From: Fibrobacter succinogenes subsp. succinogenes S85
GTDB lineage: Bacteria > Fibrobacterota > Fibrobacteria > Fibrobacterales > Fibrobacteraceae
NCBI RefSeq assembly: GCF_000146505.1
Contig: NC_017448.1
Location: 1,260,001 to 1,292,000 of the forward strand
Direction of reading: 5' to 3'
Length of the DNA stretch: 32,000 bases
Each line of letters begins with the position of its first letter. Position 1 is the first letter of the stretch. Under the pieces are notes generated by a model that saw only the letters and a program-made list of their open reading frames with translations, searched no databases and was not told where the DNA came from. Made by a program: the position numbers and the translations under genes. Below, piece after piece: positions 4,661 through 12,444 of the stretch.

Positions 4661-5602
4661 ATGAAACAAGAAACGTCCAGTAGTAAGGTATTCGCCAAGC
4701 GTATCATCCAGCTTCTCGTAAGTATTGGCGGGTTCGCCTATATTTTCTATAAAATACCATTTAATGAAGTTGTTAAAAACTGGAATATAGGCATGACCCC
4801 GTGGGTAGTCGCGATGCTTATCGACGCAACGCTTGTCATGGCGATACAAGCTAACCGCTGGAAAGGTCTTTCCGTACAAGGTCCCGAGATACCGTTCAAG
4901 ACATACTATGCCTACACCGCCATGGGGTACTTTTTCAACAACCTTCTCCCCACTGGTTTTGGAGGCGATGCCGTCAAATCCCTTGCTTTTGGCAAGAACT
5001 ACAACCAGACAAGCCAATCCGTTTCAGCGGTGCTCATAGCCCGCATTCAGGGATTGCTCGCCATGTCCCTCTGCTTTTTTACCGCACTTCCCTTCGCCTT
5101 TAGCAAAGCGGACATCCCCTGGAGCTACACTTTAATCATGGCAGTGGCAAGCCTTGCCTGTATCATATTTATTTCACTTTGTCTGTTTTCGGATAAAATT
5201 CCTATTCCAGAGGCGATTTCAAACAAGCTTTCATTCATCCCCAAGTTGCAAAAGAGTCTTTCCATTTACCGCAAACATAAAAAACAGCTTTTACTTTCTT
5301 CGCTCGATTCCCTGTGGATCCAGTTTTTGACATTGTTTATAGCATACGCCTATTTCCGGGCAGTCGGAGTAGACATTGACATCAGCATTTTAGTTGTATT
5401 CATAAGCATCACTGTCGTCGTTTCGATGCTCCCGATTTCGCTCAACGGCATCGGGGTCCGCGAAGGAATCCATGTCGCATTGTTCACAGGGATTCTCGGG
5501 ATTCCTGCATCGATAGTACTTGCCGCAGGATTGCTTGGATACATTCCGGTACTTTTCCAGGCCGCCCAAGGTGCGGTCGTACTCATCGCCCGGAAGAAAT
5601 AA
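4661..5602 (+). CDS. Flippase-like / LPG_synthase_TM (UPF0104) family integral membrane protein
   Basis: Polytopic hydrophobic protein. Two pseudo-symmetric glycine motifs, LLPTGFGGDAVK and LPISLNGIGVREG, are characteristic of the lysylphosphatidylglycerol-synthase TM-region family as I remember it. Confidence 0.7.
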   Translation: MKQETSSSKVFAKRIIQLLVSIGGFAYIFYKIPFNEVVKNWNIGMTPWVVAMLIDATLVMAIQANRWKGLSVQGPEIPFKTYYAYTAMGYFFNNLLPTGFGGDAVKSLAFGKNYNQTSQSVSAVLIARIQGLLAMSLCFFTALPFAFSKADIPWSYTLIMAVASLACIIFISLCLFSDKIPIPEAISNKLSFIPKLQKSLSIYRKHKKQLLLSSLDSLWIQFLTLFIAYAYFRAVGVDIDISILVVFISITVVVSMLPISLNGIGVREGIHVALFTGILGIPASIVLAAGLLGYIPVLFQAAQGAVVLIARKK

Positions 5603-5671: not shown

Positions 5672-6310
5672 TTATTCTTCGGCGAGGGCTTCCTTGTATT
5701 CATCGACGGTAGCGATATACTCGTCAATCATGTCTTGCTTGGAATCCAGGTAAGCAAGAATCTTTTCGAGGTGTTCCTTGGAGAACACGGTCTTGAGCTG
5801 GCGTGAAGCATGGCCCTTGTAGCCCCATTCCTTGAGAATTTCGTCGGTCACAACGAAAGAATCGTCGAGGGAAACAAAACGCATCGGACCGTAAACAGCC
5901 CAGTTGTGTTCCATCTGCATGCATTCCGGTTCTTCCATTTCCGGGTTTGCCATGTAGCGCTGCACGTGACGGGTACGCACATCCTTGATCTTATCGATAC
6001 GCATGTAACCCATGATGAGGTACTTGTTACGCATTTCGGAATCGCTCAAGCCTTCGTAGCGGGTACCGAAAAGAATGTAACGGCTTTTGCTCTTCACAAT
6101 CGTGTTGATTGCCTTCACATTGTAGCAGCTCATCAGACCATAGGTGCTGGTTTCGTAGTTCGGTTCGTAAAGAAAACCCTTTTCATTTTCATTCAGCTGG
6201 TCGCGGACAGGCATTTCGGACTGATGGCTAGTTTCGACATAAAGCAGGCTACCTGCCATGTTGCCACGGTAGTCTTGCCAACCTTCGAGATTGATCTGTG
6301 TTTTCGGCAT
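5672..6310 (-). CDS. Hypothetical cytoplasmic protein (212 aa), no family recognised
   Basis: Long ORF with native-like composition, its own terminator, and an acidic C-terminal helix (DEYIATVDEYKEALAEE). I recognise no motif. Confidence 0.55.
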   Translation of the reverse strand: MPKTQINLEGWQDYRGNMAGSLLYVETSHQSEMPVRDQLNENEKGFLYEPNYETSTYGLMSCYNVKAINTIVKSKSRYILFGTRYEGLSDSEMRNKYLIMGYMRIDKIKDVRTRHVQRYMANPEMEEPECMQMEHNWAVYGPMRFVSLDDSFVVTDEILKEWGYKGHASRQLKTVFSKEHLEKILAYLDSKQDMIDEYIATVDEYKEALAEE

Positions 6311-6412: not shown

Positions 6413-7222
6413 TTAAAAAGTCAACGACTCCGCCGAAATATTTTCCATTCCAAAGCGAAAAGCGCCTTTTTTGAAGAATTCTGCGGTATCGGTCGTCAAA
6501 TAATGCACTGAACCGCCCTTTGAAAGCCGATTTTCCATGTCCACATGGCGCTTGAGGTAGTCCAAAGTCTTGTCGGCGACGATATCGCCCTGGACCACCA
6601 AGCGGACATGCGGTGGAAGTGCGGCCCGAATTTCATCCTCGAGGAGTGGGTAATGTGTGCAGGCCAGTAAAACTGTATCGATTTCAGGGTCAGCCGCGAG
6701 CAGCTGGTCCACGTCCTTTTTCACGAAGAATCGGGCGCCCTCGGTCCCGCGTTCACCGTATTCCACAAGCGGCACCCACATCGGGCAGGCGTGCTGCGTC
6801 ACCTTCAAGTTCGGGAAAAAATGGCTGATTTCAAGAACGTAGCTGTTCGAAGAGACCGTCCCTGCGGTAGCAAAAATGCCAATATGCCCCGTTTTCGAGA
6901 AGTTCCCAATCTCTTCGGCGGTCGGGCGGACAATGCCCAAAACGCGACGGTCCGGGAATTCGACCGGGAGCACCTGTTGCTGGATGCTGCGGAGCGCCTT
7001 TGCCGATGCCGTGTTGCACGCGAGAATCACCAGCGGACATCCGCGGTGGAAAAGTTCGCGCACGGACTGGAGCGTATAGCGGTAAATCGTCTCGAAACTG
7101 CGGGAGCCATACGGCGCACGGGCATTATCCCCCAGATACAGGTAATCGTACTGCGGGAGCGTGTGGCGAAGCTTCTGCAAAATCGTGAGCCCGCCAAATC
7201 CAGAATCAAAGACGCCGATCAT
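6413..7222 (-). CDS. murI: Glutamate racemase
   Basis: MIGVFDSGFGGLTIL...YLGDNARAPYG...ILACNTASA...LLACTHYPLL shows both catalytic Cys motifs (ACNTAS and CTHYP) and the canonical N-terminus. Confidence 0.92.
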   Translation of the reverse strand: MIGVFDSGFGGLTILQKLRHTLPQYDYLYLGDNARAPYGSRSFETIYRYTLQSVRELFHRGCPLVILACNTASAKALRSIQQQVLPVEFPDRRVLGIVRPTAEEIGNFSKTGHIGIFATAGTVSSNSYVLEISHFFPNLKVTQHACPMWVPLVEYGERGTEGARFFVKKDVDQLLAADPEIDTVLLACTHYPLLEDEIRAALPPHVRLVVQGDIVADKTLDYLKRHVDMENRLSKGGSVHYLTTDTAEFFKKGAFRFGMENISAESLTF

Positions 7223-9440
7223 AAGCTTCTTCCATCATTTTTCTAACATACGGGAGCAGTTCATGACGCGGGTCCATTTCATCGCCGCCGTGAGTCTTCT
7301 TGAATTCGACCGTATCGATTGGTTCGAGAATCTTAATGTTGACCGGGTGGTGCTTGGAATCCTTGCGGTGTTCCCAAAGCAAGTCGGAACCACGAGTGAC
7401 CATCGGCAATATAATAGCGTTTGCCTCGACGGCAAGTCTAAAGCAACCGCTCTTGAAAGCGACCATGCCATCGCGCTTGCTGCGGGTGCCTTCCGGGAAA
7501 ACGAAGAGTCTCGGCATTTTGCCCGTCTGGAGCGCCTTCTGGATAATCGCGGCGCCACCGCCCTTTTCACGGTCGATAAAGACACAACCGAGCTTGTGCA
7601 TCCAGAAGTTCAGAATCGGGATGCACTGCAACTGAGTTTTGGCGATAAAGCCCACGGTTCGCTGCAAGGCGAGGAACGCCAGCGGGATATCCAGATACGA
7701 ACGATGGTTCCCCATCACGAACACCGGGCGTGTCCAGTCCACTTTTGCAAGTTGCGCCTGGTCTTCAATCGTCAAGTCCACACGCAAGACCTTCATGCAG
7801 AAGCGGGAGAAGACCTGTACCTTTTCTTCAAGCCATGGATCCAGGTCTTTACGACGGAAAATGTACATGAATGCAATCTTGAAAATATATTCGAGCATAA
7901 ACGCAAAAATTCTTGCCGCTCCATATATCCTAAATAACATCACTGGCATATTACACTCTGTTTTTGAACTTTCCTTGGGCAAAAAACGAGACCGTTTGAG
8001 TTTCGTAAGGCGCCCTTTCCAATATCTACGTTTGCAATATAGCAAAACCAAAAAAGATTCAGCCCGCGTGACCCCGACGTAAAACAATCGACGTTCCTCA
8101 TCGAGCTGTTTTTGGCGCTGTTTACGTGAGCCCAAGCACGAACCCGGCGTAAGTCCCTCGGACATCCCCGCATAATAGACCACCGCATACTGAAGCCCCT
8201 TGGACGCGTGGACCGTCTCGACATGAATTCCGTTTTCAAGGACCTCACCCTCCCCCTCTACGTTACCCGCCTCCGACACGACCGTCCCTGCGATCGGGAG
8301 ATGCGCATCGCGGAGAGCTTCTTCGTAATATAGGCGTTGCCTATTATAGCGCACGAGGATTGCAAAGTTTTTCCATTGGAGGTCATAGCTTTCTCGGAGC
8401 AACTTGATACTCGTGATGATTTTTTGCATTTCTTCGACGGGGTCTTCGCTCACCCAGATTTCGGGTTCACGGTTTTCCTTGAAAATCGGCGAGCCGCCCG
8501 AGCCGTTCATGTTTCCCGCACGCAAGACCTTCCGCAAGTGGATAGGCTTGTTTTCAAAAATCCTATTCGAAAAATGTAAAATGTTCGCGACCGAACGATA
8601 ATTCCATTCCAAGCGAATCAGAGAGCTCTCCTTGAAGTCATCGCGGAAACGGTTGATATTCCCGATATCGGCCCCACGGAATCCGTAAATAGCTTGGTCA
8701 TCATCGCCCACAACAAACAACGACTTGCGCTCACCCAGCAGCGCTTTGACAAGCCGATACTGCGACGGGTTGATGTCCTGATATTCATCAACAAGTATTT
8801 CCGTCCATTGATTTTGGAAATAGGCACGCGCCGACTCGTGATTTTCAAGCAGATTAATCGCCTGGTAGATGAGGTCTTCAAAAACAACTTGACCAGATTC
8901 CAGAATGCGATGACGCAATGGTTCAAGTTTTTTGAGGAGCTTCGCGGGATGCGCATCCGAGAAAAGCTCTTCGCGAGAAAAGCGGAATTTTCGACCGCCG
9001 ACTTTCGCGAGTTCCTGCATAAAAGTCTTGTCCGCCGATTCCGTCGGGACCGGCATTTTCTTGAATCCGACAAGTTCGTACGCAGGGCAAGAGCTGCAAG
9101 CGCCCGCCGCACAAGCCTCATCATACCCAACAGGAACCTTAGATTTAAGAACAAACAGCGCGAGCGAGTGGAACGTGCAGAGCCGCACACCAGCATTCGG
9201 GAAAAGCTTTTGCACACGCTCCCGCATTTCGGCAGCAGCCTTCGCCGTAAACGTGAGCGCCAAGATTTTCTCTGGTTCAACGCCCGACATAATCCGGTAC
9301 TGGATTCGCTTGGTCAAGACCGAAGTCTTTCCCGAGCCAGCCCCTGCTAGAATTAAAAGTTGTCCGTTCTTTTCATGATCGTGGAGTACCGCCGCACGTT
9401 GGTCGGAGTTCAGCCCGACCAAAAGACTTTCTACATCCAT
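7206..9440 (-). CDS. UvrD/PcrA-like SF1 helicase (aa 1-~497) fused in frame to a PlsC-type 1-acylglycerol-3-phosphate acyltransferase (aa ~498-744)
   Basis: Helicase motifs: AGAGSGKT, VDEYQD, GDDDQAIYGFRGA, NYRS, VHASKGLQY, YVGVTRA. A hydrophobic segment MPVMLFRIYGAARIFAFMLEYIF follows, then acyltransferase blocks NHRSYLD (Hx4D) and FPEGTR. One uninterrupted reading frame. The stop overlaps the murI start by 17 nt. Confidence 0.8.
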   Translation of the reverse strand: MDVESLLVGLNSDQRAAVLHDHEKNGQLLILAGAGSGKTSVLTKRIQYRIMSGVEPEKILALTFTAKAAAEMRERVQKLFPNAGVRLCTFHSLALFVLKSKVPVGYDEACAAGACSSCPAYELVGFKKMPVPTESADKTFMQELAKVGGRKFRFSREELFSDAHPAKLLKKLEPLRHRILESGQVVFEDLIYQAINLLENHESARAYFQNQWTEILVDEYQDINPSQYRLVKALLGERKSLFVVGDDDQAIYGFRGADIGNINRFRDDFKESSLIRLEWNYRSVANILHFSNRIFENKPIHLRKVLRAGNMNGSGGSPIFKENREPEIWVSEDPVEEMQKIITSIKLLRESYDLQWKNFAILVRYNRQRLYYEEALRDAHLPIAGTVVSEAGNVEGEGEVLENGIHVETVHASKGLQYAVVYYAGMSEGLTPGSCLGSRKQRQKQLDEERRLFYVGVTRAESFLVLLYCKRRYWKGRLTKLKRSRFLPKESSKTECNMPVMLFRIYGAARIFAFMLEYIFKIAFMYIFRRKDLDPWLEEKVQVFSRFCMKVLRVDLTIEDQAQLAKVDWTRPVFVMGNHRSYLDIPLAFLALQRTVGFIAKTQLQCIPILNFWMHKLGCVFIDREKGGGAAIIQKALQTGKMPRLFVFPEGTRSKRDGMVAFKSGCFRLAVEANAIILPMVTRGSDLLWEHRKDSKHHPVNIKILEPIDTVEFKKTHGGDEMDPRHELLPYVRKMMEEAYDRRL

Positions 9441-9506: not shown

Positions 9507-10517
9507 CTATTGAGCGTTCTTTGCTGGTTCTATAGGCGTGGGTTTCTGCCCCACCAAAAATGCGACCGCACCAAACAAGCTCAAAATCAAACTTACAAAA
9601 TAAGCGAGCAACTGAATCACAACCGATTCAAGTCCAGGCACGCCTGCACGCGCAAAAAGCGACTGTGCCAAAAATTCACGCGGACCAAAACCGCCAATCG
9701 AAATCGGGAGCGCACTCACAATGGCGACTAGCGGAATGTAATAGAAGTACCACGACATCGAGAGGTTCACGCCCACCGCAATCCCGCAGAAAAAGTGAAC
9801 AAAGATGCGGAGAGACTGGGTTACCATCGAAAGGCAAATGATGTTAATCCAAAGTTTCTTGGAGCGGAACTTCTGGAATCGGTCAAACATGCGAAGGAGT
9901 CGTGTTTCAAACTTCTCGGGCAGCACCTTCCCCGCCATACGGCAGAAGAACTTGCCTATGCGACGGCTCAAAAGCCCTGCAAACATCACGCAGAAGCCAA
10001 GAAAAATCCAGACGGACGGCCACATGAACGCACGCTGTTCCGGATCGTGAATAAAGAACAAGGCGCCCACGCCAAGAGCAAACAACGTGATAAAGAAAAG
10101 TCCAAACAAGCGATCAAACACCGTCGCCGTAAAGCCCGCGCCAACCGTATCTTGCCCGCCCTGCATGCGGATATCGTAAACCTTCTTGACGTCACCGCCG
10201 ACGTTACCGGGCATAAAGTTGTTGAAGAAGAGCCCCACATGATAAAGCTTGAGGAGCCTAGCGTACTTGAGGCGAACACCCTGTTTTTCGAGCAAGAGTT
10301 TCCACTGGAGGCAAGCTGTAAAGTTCGAAACCGCGAGGCAAAGGAGCGCAAGCACAAGCGGGAAAACGCTGTTTTTCTTGAACAAGTTATAGAGGTCGCC
10401 AACATCCCATTCCGGGTCGCTCACAATGTTACGATAGACAAAGTAAGCAGGAACGAGCGTTACCACCAGCTTTAAGCAAAAAATAATTACCGACTTGAGC
10501 TTCGGATTCAACTTCAT
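9507..10517 (-). CDS. Flippase-like / LPG_synthase_TM (UPF0104) family integral membrane protein, paralog of 4661..5602
   Basis: Motifs FMPGNVGGDVKK and LPISIGGFGPREF, polytopic. I prefer the ATG at 10517 because it forms an ATGA overlap with the GT4 stop (10514..10517). The ORF-track start at 10532 is also possible. Confidence 0.7.
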   Translation of the reverse strand: MKLNPKLKSVIIFCLKLVVTLVPAYFVYRNIVSDPEWDVGDLYNLFKKNSVFPLVLALLCLAVSNFTACLQWKLLLEKQGVRLKYARLLKLYHVGLFFNNFMPGNVGGDVKKVYDIRMQGGQDTVGAGFTATVFDRLFGLFFITLFALGVGALFFIHDPEQRAFMWPSVWIFLGFCVMFAGLLSRRIGKFFCRMAGKVLPEKFETRLLRMFDRFQKFRSKKLWINIICLSMVTQSLRIFVHFFCGIAVGVNLSMSWYFYYIPLVAIVSALPISIGGFGPREFLAQSLFARAGVPGLESVVIQLLAYFVSLILSLFGAVAFLVGQKPTPIEPAKNAQ

Positions 10518-11659
10518 TTTCGTACGCTCCAATCAACCGTACGTTCCAACAATTCCAACGTTTCGCGGGCAGAATTTTCCCAGCTGAACGATTCGGCGTA
10601 ATGCTTGGCATTCTTGCCAAGATTTGCGCGCAGTTCAGCATCGCTATAAATTTTTTCCATTGCAGAAGCGCACGCGGTCGCATCTCCCGACGGGAACAGA
10701 ATTCCCGTCTCGCCGTCACGGACGCTATCGCAGAGTCCCGGCACATCCGACGCAATCGTCGTCTTGCAGAGCTGCGCCGCTTCCATCACCGTGAGGCCCC
10801 AGCCTTCCTTGTAGCTCGTCTGCAACAGCGCAAGCGAAGACGAAAGCAGTTCGTACTTGCGAGCGGCAGGCACAAAGCCCGTCAGTTCCACCTTGCCATC
10901 CAGGCCATGCGATTTAATCCAAGCTGGGAGCTTTTTCAAAAGCGGACCACCGCCCACAATTTTCAACTGGACTTCGGGATGCGACTTCGAAAAAATTTCA
11001 AACGCTTCAAGCGCCGTCCAAATACCTTTGTAACGGTGCACGCGAGAAAGCCAGATGAAATACGGGTTCGCCGCAGTCTCACTAGATTCTGCAGTACCTG
11101 TCGCGAGGTCCGCGCATCCCGGGAAATTCGGCTTTTCAGAACCGTTATAAATCACGGAAATTCGGCTTTCGTCCACGCCAATTTCGGCAAGTTCTTTCTT
11201 GGTACTCGGACTCACCACTACAAAATTCTGCGTGCGGTAAAAGAACGGAATAATCCGCTCAAAGAACCAGACCATAAACGCAATCGGGAAAAACGCTTCA
11301 GCAAAAATTGACTTCCGCCACAAATGATGCATCTGCACCAGGAGCGGCTTGCGGACGAACCAGTGGGCAAAGACCGGTAACTTGTTCAAATCTTCAACAA
11401 CAACGTCAAAGTCAAATTCGCGGTCAAGCTTCTTCAGATTCAGCGCTACCGTGAGCTGGAACATCAAATCGCCACCCTTGCGGATGACCTGAATTCCATC
11501 GACAATTTCGCGTTCTTTGGCTCCCGGAAATGTCGTCGTAAACAGGACCACCGTGTGGCCCATTTCTACAATCTTCGAGAAAATGCGATGCAAATGCTTT
11601 TCGGCGCCGCCGGCAGCCGGATGCATGCGATCCCGGTAATTTACGACGAGAATTTTCAA
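10514..11659 (-). CDS. Family 4 (GT-B, group 1) glycosyltransferase
   Basis: MKILVVNYRDRMHPAAGGAEKHL... N-terminus. The C-terminal EGWGLTVMEAA plus GETG motif is typical of GT4 retaining transferases. Confidence 0.85.
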   Translation of the reverse strand: MKILVVNYRDRMHPAAGGAEKHLHRIFSKIVEMGHTVVLFTTTFPGAKEREIVDGIQVIRKGGDLMFQLTVALNLKKLDREFDFDVVVEDLNKLPVFAHWFVRKPLLVQMHHLWRKSIFAEAFFPIAFMVWFFERIIPFFYRTQNFVVVSPSTKKELAEIGVDESRISVIYNGSEKPNFPGCADLATGTAESSETAANPYFIWLSRVHRYKGIWTALEAFEIFSKSHPEVQLKIVGGGPLLKKLPAWIKSHGLDGKVELTGFVPAARKYELLSSSLALLQTSYKEGWGLTVMEAAQLCKTTIASDVPGLCDSVRDGETGILFPSGDATACASAMEKIYSDAELRANLGKNAKHYAESFSWENSARETLELLERTVDWSVRK

Positions 11660-11667
11660 GCAATCAC

Positions 11668-12444
11668 CTAAGGCTTACGACCGATCACGCCAATGCAAAG
11701 CTGCGTGTAGTGCATCACCGGCACAGACTGGAGGCTATCCAAAATCTTGTCCTTAATCTTTTGGTAGGCCGTTCCGTCAAGCGGATACTTCGGGAGTTCA
11801 ATACCGAACTTGAAGCAGAGCTCGCGCAGAATGCGGTAGAAAAGATTCGGGCGCATCCAGTCGCCATAGGCATAGACATATTCAAAGCCAGCGTCACGCA
11901 TGAGCTTCTTGAGTTGCCCCATCGTGAACTGTTTTTCCCAACCGGCAAACCACTTGTCCATCGCAATCAAGATATGCTTGATAACCGTGTACGGGTGGAC
12001 GGTCTGCGGCACATCGCAAAGGCAGCAACCGCCATGCTTGACGATGCGGAAGTTTTCTTGCAAGAGCGGGAGTGAATCCTTGAAATGTTCGGCCAAACCC
12101 TGATGGAACACCAAGTCAAATGTGTTGTCCGGGAACGGGGACTTGAAAGCATCGCCACGAACTAAGTGCAAATTTTTGAAGCCTTCACTCTCACGGAGCG
12201 AATTGACAATTTTCAAGCTATTTTCGGCATAATCGAGAACATACACATCGGCGCCCAAACGAGCGAGTTCGGCACTGTCGCGGCCGGTACCTGCACCGAC
12301 CTCAAGCACCTTTAGGCCCTCGAGCTTAAAATTCTTCTTAATAGCTTCTATAATAGACGGCGAAGACGGATAGACTTTGTCCATGTCGTTCTTGCGCTGC
12401 CAAAAACGGTTCCATACGGATTGATCAGGCTCTTTTATTGACAT
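11668..12444 (-). CDS. Class I SAM-dependent methyltransferase
   Basis: Motif I VLEVGAGTGRDS, followed by the acidic residue after beta2 (VYVLDY). Confidence 0.85.
   Translation of the reverse strand: MSIKEPDQSVWNRFWQRKNDMDKVYPSSPSIIEAIKKNFKLEGLKVLEVGAGTGRDSAELARLGADVYVLDYAENSLKIVNSLRESEGFKNLHLVRGDAFKSPFPDNTFDLVFHQGLAEHFKDSLPLLQENFRIVKHGGCCLCDVPQTVHPYTVIKHILIAMDKWFAGWEKQFTMGQLKKLMRDAGFEYVYAYGDWMRPNLFYRILRELCFKFGIELPKYPLDGTAYQKIKDKILDSLQSVPVMHYTQLCIGVIGRKP

Follow-up and report, generated by a model that had tools for sequence, protein, structure and literature searches.

Superfamily 1A (SF1A) DNA helicases of the UvrD, PcrA and Rep type (PDB 1pjr, 2is1, 3lfu and 1uaa) are built from four subdomains, 1A, 1B, 2A and 2B. 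Whether 2B acts as an autoinhibitor or as an activator has been debated for decades, and its role has been probed only by engineered deletions. Rep without 2B is hyperactive in unwinding as a monomer and has lost protein displacement and accessory-helicase function (PMC6158625). Removal of 2B from mycobacterial UvrD1 unmasks helicase activity and abolishes nucleotide excision repair; overexpression of this unbridled form slows growth in an ATPase-dependent manner and is detrimental to the cell (PMC13646824). Here we describe a gene of Fibrobacter succinogenes subsp. succinogenes S85, located at 7206–9440 on the minus strand of a 32,000-nucleotide stretch of its genome (NC_017448.1, positions 1,260,001 to 1,292,000; hereafter the window), which encodes a UvrD-family helicase module without 2B that continues in frame into a PlsC-type acyltransferase with a predicted membrane anchor.

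FtsK and SpoIIIE are DNA translocases at the cytoplasmic membrane; they are hexameric pumps of the RecA/AAA+ type that act on double-stranded DNA and carry N-terminal transmembrane domains. The Fibrobacter protein would likewise place a DNA motor at the membrane, but FtsK and SpoIIIE are neither monomeric SF1A motors nor joined to an enzyme acting on lipids. PlsC itself is described as a monotopic protein, held in the membrane by a pair of helices at its N terminus (PMC10146087, citing Robertson et al. 2017). Both domains of the fusion are well known; what is new is a natural clade of UvrD-family helicases lacking 2B and its covalent tie to PlsC across one bacterial family. This ancient clade dispenses with 2B and occurs in free and tethered states in related organisms, where the two can be compared directly.

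A single gene, fused across the Fibrobacteraceae

The gene is one open reading frame (ORF) of 744 codons plus stop, composed of a helicase module, a short linker and an acyltransferase module (Table 1). Pfam places UvrD-helicase (PF00580) at residues 10–270 (E = 8e-64), UvrD_C (PF13361) at 399–470 (E = 3e-27) and Acyltransferase (PF01553) at 566–681 (E = 1.5e-24). The initial annotation of the window had described an uninterrupted frame running from a helicase into a lysophospholipid acyltransferase (LPLAT) domain; the ORF indeed carries both domain sets in Pfam and NCBIfam, and the translation has all the motifs named there at the positions given. The gene structure and its conservation indicate one bifunctional protein, with both activities predicted from sequence.

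A lost stop codon or an assembly artefact had been considered possible, in which case helicase and acyltransferase would really be separate genes in this strain. The host assembly is a single contig of 3,843,004 bp and is 99.99% complete. All 18 genomes sampled from the genus have the full-length frame open, without internal stops. An order-wide search found the same full-length open frame in every one of the 100 other species genomes in the genus, and a match in 149 of 150 other genomes of the family. The family matches span 12 genera at 47–98% identity and contain no internal stops; the complete ones are one frame of about 700–825 residues, and the shorter ones end at contig edges. The single family genome with no match (G138) also lacks the conserved upstream neighbour, the region being absent from its assembly, and is uninformative. 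A genome of the sister family (G019, one genus) carries the fusion at about 34% identity. The ortholog comparison has therefore come out in favour of a conserved fusion, since every complete match in the family is fused and none is cleanly split, and both a strain-specific lost stop and an assembly artefact are refuted. All that could be held in favour of separate genes is a small number of broken copies in metagenome scaffolds, none of which concerns this genome, and we regard the chance that the genes are separate here as negligible.

These broken or seemingly split copies are few. Close relatives of the PlsC module that look stand-alone come nearly all from contigs shorter than 2 kb. One of them, an apparent 244-residue stand-alone PlsC (P0138, L040), is a fragment at a contig edge and keeps an open frame across the junction; an apparent frameshift in L041 is a run of N marking a scaffold gap; and L123 was rejected as a split copy, as it belongs to an error-prone assembly in which the adjoining genes are fragmented too. 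Two lesions are left. L039 (2840–2975), which has the same synteny as the S85 locus, carries an in-frame TAG in place of the Tyr468 codon in LLYCKRR and truncates the helicase about 30 codons ahead of the PlsC methionine, and L122 has a frameshift near residues 265–280. Both lesions fall in the helicase half, each leaving a PlsC ORF that starts at the methionine, and both lie in metagenome scaffolds of uncertain accuracy; they could reflect errors of sequencing or the loss of the helicase in rare strains.

Database searches gave a consistent picture. The best 120 matches to the F. succinogenes protein and the best 120 to a divergent fused protein (P0123) have both domain sets in 240 of 240 cases; the sources named include Fibrobacter, Fibrobacteraceae, "Fibromonadaceae" and Fibrobacterales, and the products are annotated as helicase, as acyltransferase or as hypothetical protein. 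Among 1.84 billion representatives, searched exhaustively, fused clusters at 50% identity numbered only a handful; the remaining matches were fragments, stand-alone compact helicases and canonical UvrD-like proteins. The architecture, which had been called unfamiliar, is thus present in public databases under automatic names; a literature search found no paper describing a helicase–PlsC fusion and none linking the two functions.

We aligned 85 diverse fused proteins with 40–97% identity to the F. succinogenes protein, and the conservation values and family-wide counts below refer to this set. Helicase motifs I, Ia, II, III, IV, V and VI are invariant, as are the HX4D, GFxAK and FPEGxR motifs of PlsC. 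Column conservation is 0.76–0.77 in the RecA-like helicase cores, 0.65 in the PlsC core and 0.35 in the linker; the helicase core being more conserved than the PlsC core, the helicase is not a decaying passenger. The linker varies in sequence and is always in frame and free of stops, with 12–22 residues separating the positions of L487 and F503. Judged by these sequence comparisons, the fusion is genuine and under selection.

A natural SF1A helicase without subdomain 2B

In alignments with PDB sequences (phmmer), residues 4–383 of the fusion match PcrA 6–378 and residues 387–488 match PcrA 540–639. A complete set of SF1 motifs in an unusually short helicase had been reported in the initial annotation. 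The motif set is complete, and the short length comes from the absence of the whole 2B subdomain (about 160 residues) and of the C-terminal tail of PcrA and UvrD. It shares with UvrD, PcrA and Rep motifs I, Ia, II, III, IV, V and VI, the RecA-like cores 1A and 2A, and a small 1B. The aromatic positions of motif III that stack on single-stranded DNA (ssDNA) are also kept: GDDDQAIYGFRGA aligns to PcrA GDADQSIYRWRGA, placing Y252 and F254 at these positions. The four-subdomain architecture of these enzymes, in which 2B is inserted in 2A, is not found, as 2B is missing from the PDB alignment. Where PcrA has 2B (about residues 379–539), the fused proteins have a stump of 2–29 residues with a column conservation of 0.24, and the PlsC module stands in place of the C-terminal tail.

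An AlphaFold2 (AF2) model built from 85 diverse homologs has a predicted local distance difference test score (pLDDT) of 87.1 and a predicted template modelling score (pTM) of 0.80, and 2B and the tail are absent there too; an earlier model from a shallow alignment of 24 close homologs (pLDDT 55.6) was discarded. The top Foldseek matches of the model are PcrA, UvrD and Rep (E = 1e-32 to 1e-28), and the same proteins give the best PDB sequence matches (E = 1e-54 to 7e-60). Scores for the NCBIfam equivalogs lie well below their cut-offs, at 302 bits against 911 for PcrA, 279 against 951 for Rep and 257–277 against 965–1144 for UvrD.

In a tree of helicase modules, the compact helicases form a clade of their own (Shimodaira–Hasegawa-like approximate likelihood ratio test, 100), set off from the canonical enzymes by a long stem. 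Nested within this clade are the fused forms, together with the stand-alone helicases of family f4 and one metagenomic stand-alone protein, and the tree demands no fewer than two changes in the fused state. Many other families of the phylum have, in a patchy distribution, stand-alone compact helicases of about 500–515 residues, and stand-alone orthologs end at the same RSRFLP motif that closes the helicase module of the fusion. A search for loci related to one stand-alone helicase, P0132, gave almost only canonical UvrD genes from unrelated phyla, the one compact match being L042, a locus from an uncultured Fibrobacterota bacterium. The S85 genome also carries full-length canonical UvrD-like genes, and the compact helicase is therefore an extra paralog.

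The engineered proteins Rep-delta2B and mycobacterial UvrD1-delta2B have the same composition as this module, 1A, 1B and 2A without 2B, and both acquire helicase activity in monomeric form (PMC6158625, PMC13646824). Unlike these laboratory deletions, the state of the fusion is natural, ancient and conserved and, within the family, covalently tethered. Motif conservation supports a predicted DNA-dependent ATPase with 3′–5′ translocation or unwinding. By analogy with the Rep and UvrD1 deletions, a natural enzyme without 2B would be predicted to unwind without regulation and to be weak at removing proteins.

GajB of the Gabija anti-phage defence system (about 490–500 residues) was also considered and rejected. 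It resembles the helicase module in its compact UvrD-like size, and PADLOC GajB models match (best E = 1e-67), but the similarity is generic to UvrD: GajB in the PDB aligns to residues 193–297 only, with 59 bits against 206 for PcrA. The locus has no GajA/OLD-family nuclease partner, and it occupies a conserved chromosomal site among envelope genes.

A Cys-rich insert following motif Ia had been noted in this helicase. The stretch, ACAAGACSSCP, does not come directly after motif Ia; it sits in a loop after the TFHS motif and is a lineage-specific expansion of a variable loop, which has 8 residues in most family members and 13–47 only in close kin of F. succinogenes. The expanded loops consist of unrelated low-complexity sequence, rich in indels and unconserved in alignments, and AF2 gives the region a pLDDT of about 77; the stretch is not a conserved metal site. 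Within the genus, the loop is a hot spot for low-complexity insertions (for example G007:C142:4380-6689), and in several species the open frame reaches 774–825 residues and the match is split in two by the insert.

The acyltransferase module and its predicted anchor

AF2 predicts helices at residues 500–528 and 530–551, where PlsC carries its anchor. In this protein, as in all 19 orthologs, hydrophobicity over 19-residue windows peaks in helix 1 (KD19 1.5–2.35); helix 2 is amphipathic. Residues 512–714 align to residues 21–221 of Thermotoga maritima PlsC (5kym; phmmer against PDB sequences). With this enzyme and other bacterial LPLATs the module shares the HX4D, GFxAK-type and FPEGTR motifs, with a predicted N-terminal helix pair in the anchor position, and it differs from them in having 497 residues, including the helicase, ahead of the anchor.

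Since PlsC enzymes are monotopic, both modules are expected on the cytoplasmic face of the inner membrane. A monotopic anchor would be the only topology that leaves both the helicase, which needs ATP and DNA, and the transferase, which needs its acyl donor, in the cytoplasm. Of the suggested genuine membrane-tethered helicase, the fusion protein is supported by gene structure, conservation and predicted topology; the tethering itself, and any function of the tether, we infer.

The acyltransferase module scores 87.6–90.4 bits on TIGR00530, below the cut-off of 102.95, and is far from E. coli PlsC, with 39–42 bits on PRK15018 against an equivalog cut-off of 501. The genome has six PF01553 ORFs, five besides the fusion; one stand-alone PlsC paralog scores slightly above the fused module on the models for 1-acylglycerol-3-phosphate acyltransferase (LPAAT), and none reaches a curated cut-off. 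As one of six, the fused PlsC need not be the housekeeping LPAAT. Given the neighbouring genes for a family 4 glycosyltransferase (GT4) and an LPG_synthase_TM-type protein, a glycolipid or another envelope lipid would be as plausible a product as phosphatidic acid. Two long ORFs with PF01553 domains, of 1179 and 1141 residues (G000:C1:660740-664276 and 52060-55482), resemble acyl-ACP–phospholipid O-acyltransferase (Aas-type) fusions, and the genome thus holds several multidomain acyltransferases.

The internal methionine

The first residue of the PlsC module, Met498, which is followed by Pro, had been noted as a possible start of a separate PlsC, though with no obvious ribosome-binding site ahead of it. 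It is invariant in 24 Fibrobacter sequences and is Met in 16 of 19 genomic orthologs and 62 of the 85 fused proteins, and in alignments it falls on the initiator Met of a PlsC that stands alone in the sister-family genome G022. The gene might therefore yield two products in Fibrobacter, the fusion and a free PlsC of about 28 kDa, and the TAG in L039 does leave a PlsC ORF that starts at this Met. The missing ribosome-binding site says little here, since genuine starts in the window likewise lack clear Shine-Dalgarno motifs.

Several observations point the other way. Conservation at synonymous sites upstream of Met498 shows no excess (z at most 1.5), the nucleotides upstream are not conserved across orthologs, and no sigma-70-like promoter match lies on the coding strand just upstream of 7949, a consensus scan that is weak evidence for this phylum. 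Seventeen of the 85 proteins have no Met within three residues of the boundary, several having Arg or Ser there, and in those lineages PlsC can therefore be made only as the fusion. An internal start is accordingly possible in Fibrobacter and does not hold as a general property of the family. We consider two products doubtful, though conceivable, in Fibrobacter, and Met498 is probably a relic of the ancestral PlsC start. Two products would be compatible both with a functional tether and with a tether that has no function.

Proposed role of the fusion

The N-terminal 488 residues would form a minimal SF1A motor that is driven by ATP along ssDNA, with all catalytic and DNA-contacting motifs kept and with neither the regulatory 2B nor the C-terminal tail that binds partners. 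A nine-residue linker would lead from this motor into the two-helix anchor of an intact PlsC-type acyltransferase and would hold the helicase within a few nanometres of the inner membrane, on its cytoplasmic face. The tether would confine the unregulated helicase to membrane-proximal DNA, and the acyltransferase would work in lipid synthesis. The fusion probably arose in the order Fibrobacterales by the joining of a compact helicase and a PlsC that had each stood alone, and essentially every member of the family has kept it. We favour the reading that the protein is a bifunctional, monotopic inner-membrane protein whose 2B-less motor is held by the anchor of an active acyltransferase, and assign it a probability of roughly 0.55. 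A stronger claim, that the tether is itself the point and that a constitutively unlocked UvrD-family motor acts only on membrane-proximal DNA, appears distinctly unlikely to us at present. Incoming or exported single strands and envelope-attached regions of the chromosome could be such DNA, and the arrangement could couple DNA transactions to envelope growth.

The main competing explanation is that two unrelated genes were joined by chance and that each part does its own job, the tether having no function and its undoing being mutationally hard or costly. It fits the neighbourhoods of the unfused relatives. The stand-alone compact helicases of families f4 and f6 have no lipid genes beside them, their neighbours being TPR/SLH, S41 peptidase, transposase-like and unknown genes, and in five genomes the surrounding 4 kb or so contain no PlsC; in G022, no helicase lies within 200 nt upstream of the stand-alone PlsC. 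These loci thus gave no sign of an origin from adjacent genes, plausible as the loss of a stop between two neighbours would be. It also fits the short and poorly conserved linker, the fact that neither module is unique in a genome with other PF01553 ORFs and other full-length UvrD-like helicases, and the silence of the literature on any link between the two functions. Against it stand the retention of the fusion, without a clean split, in the sister family (34% identity) and across 12 or more genera in which identity falls as low as 47%; the narrow range of linker lengths; and the whole-chain pTM of the AF2 model, which hints at a defined arrangement and not at two beads on a string. None of these is decisive, and we judge a chance joining without function to be unlikely, though it deserves to be taken seriously.

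The reading of a bifunctional protein with a functional tether has in turn to face several points that weigh against it. Other families of the phylum have untethered members of this clade, likewise without 2B, and lack of 2B alone therefore does not demand a tether. As no lipid genes flank the stand-alone helicases, genome context provides no separate link between the two functions. Splitting the fusion would need a stop, a start and a ribosome site at once, which makes its conservation weaker evidence of coupling. The curated LPAAT cut-offs are not reached by the PlsC module, so that they assign it no substrate. Finally, if the lesions of L039 and L122 are real, the helicase is dispensable in some strains.

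Should the tether prove functional, the protein would define a new class of SF1A helicases, those anchored at the membrane, and would serve as a natural experiment on the purpose of 2B; should the joining prove accidental, the finding would shrink to an annotation note. The Fibrobacteraceae are major fibre-degrading bacteria of the gut, and the conserved envelope operon and near-universal presence of the gene suggest that it is probably important.

Genomic neighbourhood and feature coordinates

The initial annotation had placed the gene in an envelope-related neighbourhood, and the Pfam assignments agree: a methyltransferase, a GT4 glycosyltransferase and an LPG_synthase_TM-type membrane protein precede the fusion, and murI follows it (Table 1), its start overlapping the 3′ end of the fusion gene by 17 nt. 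The upstream order is kept in the closer genera (g1, g11, g12, g17 and g18) and lost in more distant ones (g8, g9, g10 and g14) and in the sister family. The fusion itself is kept where synteny is lost (g8, g9, g10, g14 and G019). The order fusion, murI, 212-residue protein is kept in several genera.

Table 1. Coordinates of the fused gene, its parts and its neighbours (window positions; residue numbers refer to the 744-residue protein).
Feature	Residues	Position	Strand	Basis
Whole fused gene: compact SF1A helicase, linker, PlsC-type acyltransferase		7206..9440	-	ORF list, Pfam/NCBIfam, orthologs
Helicase module (1A, small 1B, 2A; no 2B; ends RSRFLP)	1-488	7977..9440	-	phmmer vs PDB, Foldseek, AF2
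Walker A / motif I, AGAGSGKT	32-39	9324..9347	-	Translation; A34-T39 invariant in 85 fused proteins
Variable loop with the Cys-rich stretch, VGYDEACAAGACSSCP	104-119	9084..9131	-	Alignments, AF2
Motif II, DEYQD	218-222	8775..8789	-	D218, E219, Q221 and D222 invariant in 85 fused proteins
Motif III, GDDDQAIYGFRGA	245-257	8670..8708	-	Translation; invariant in 85 fused proteins
2B stump, 21-residue loop or hairpin	384-404	8229..8291	-	Gap in PDB alignment
Motifs V (TVHASKGLQ) and VI (EERRLFYVGVTRAE)	409-417 and 448-461	8058..8216	-	Translation; invariant positions
Linker, KESSKTECN	489-497	7950..7976	-	Alignments
Internal ATG, start of PlsC module	Met498	7947..7949	-	Translation, alignments
Predicted two-helix membrane anchor	499-552	7785..7946	-	AF2, hydropathy, alignment to 5kym
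PlsC/LPLAT catalytic domain	553-744	7206..7784	-	PF01553, E 1.5e-24
HX4D motif, NHRSYLD	578-584	7689..7709	-	Translation; N578, H579 and D584 invariant
FPEGTR motif	648-653	7482..7499	-	Translation; F648-G651 and R653 invariant
murI, Asp/Glu racemase family, downstream		6413..7222	-	Pfam PF01177, ORF list
LPG_synthase_TM-type membrane protein, upstream		9507..10532	-	Pfam
GT4 glycosyltransferase, upstream		10514..11659	-	Pfam
Class-I methyltransferase, upstream		11668..12444	-	Pfam

The 212-residue protein downstream of murI (5672..6310, minus strand) has no Pfam match and travels with murI in several genera. Its identity is 88–91% within the genus and 67–74% in other genera, where that of the fusion is only 53–68%. 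The LPG_synthase_TM-type protein upstream of the fusion has a paralog in the window at 4661..5602 on the plus strand, about 4 kb away from it and 25–31% identical. At three distant loci, in genera g9 and g14 and in sister family f2, a protein of about 390–410 residues with no Pfam match is encoded one or two genes upstream of the fusion (L031:3639-4805, minus; L011:4405-5643, minus; L032:3890-5040, plus). The three proteins are 40–62% identical to one another, and in L032 the protein is split into two ORFs.

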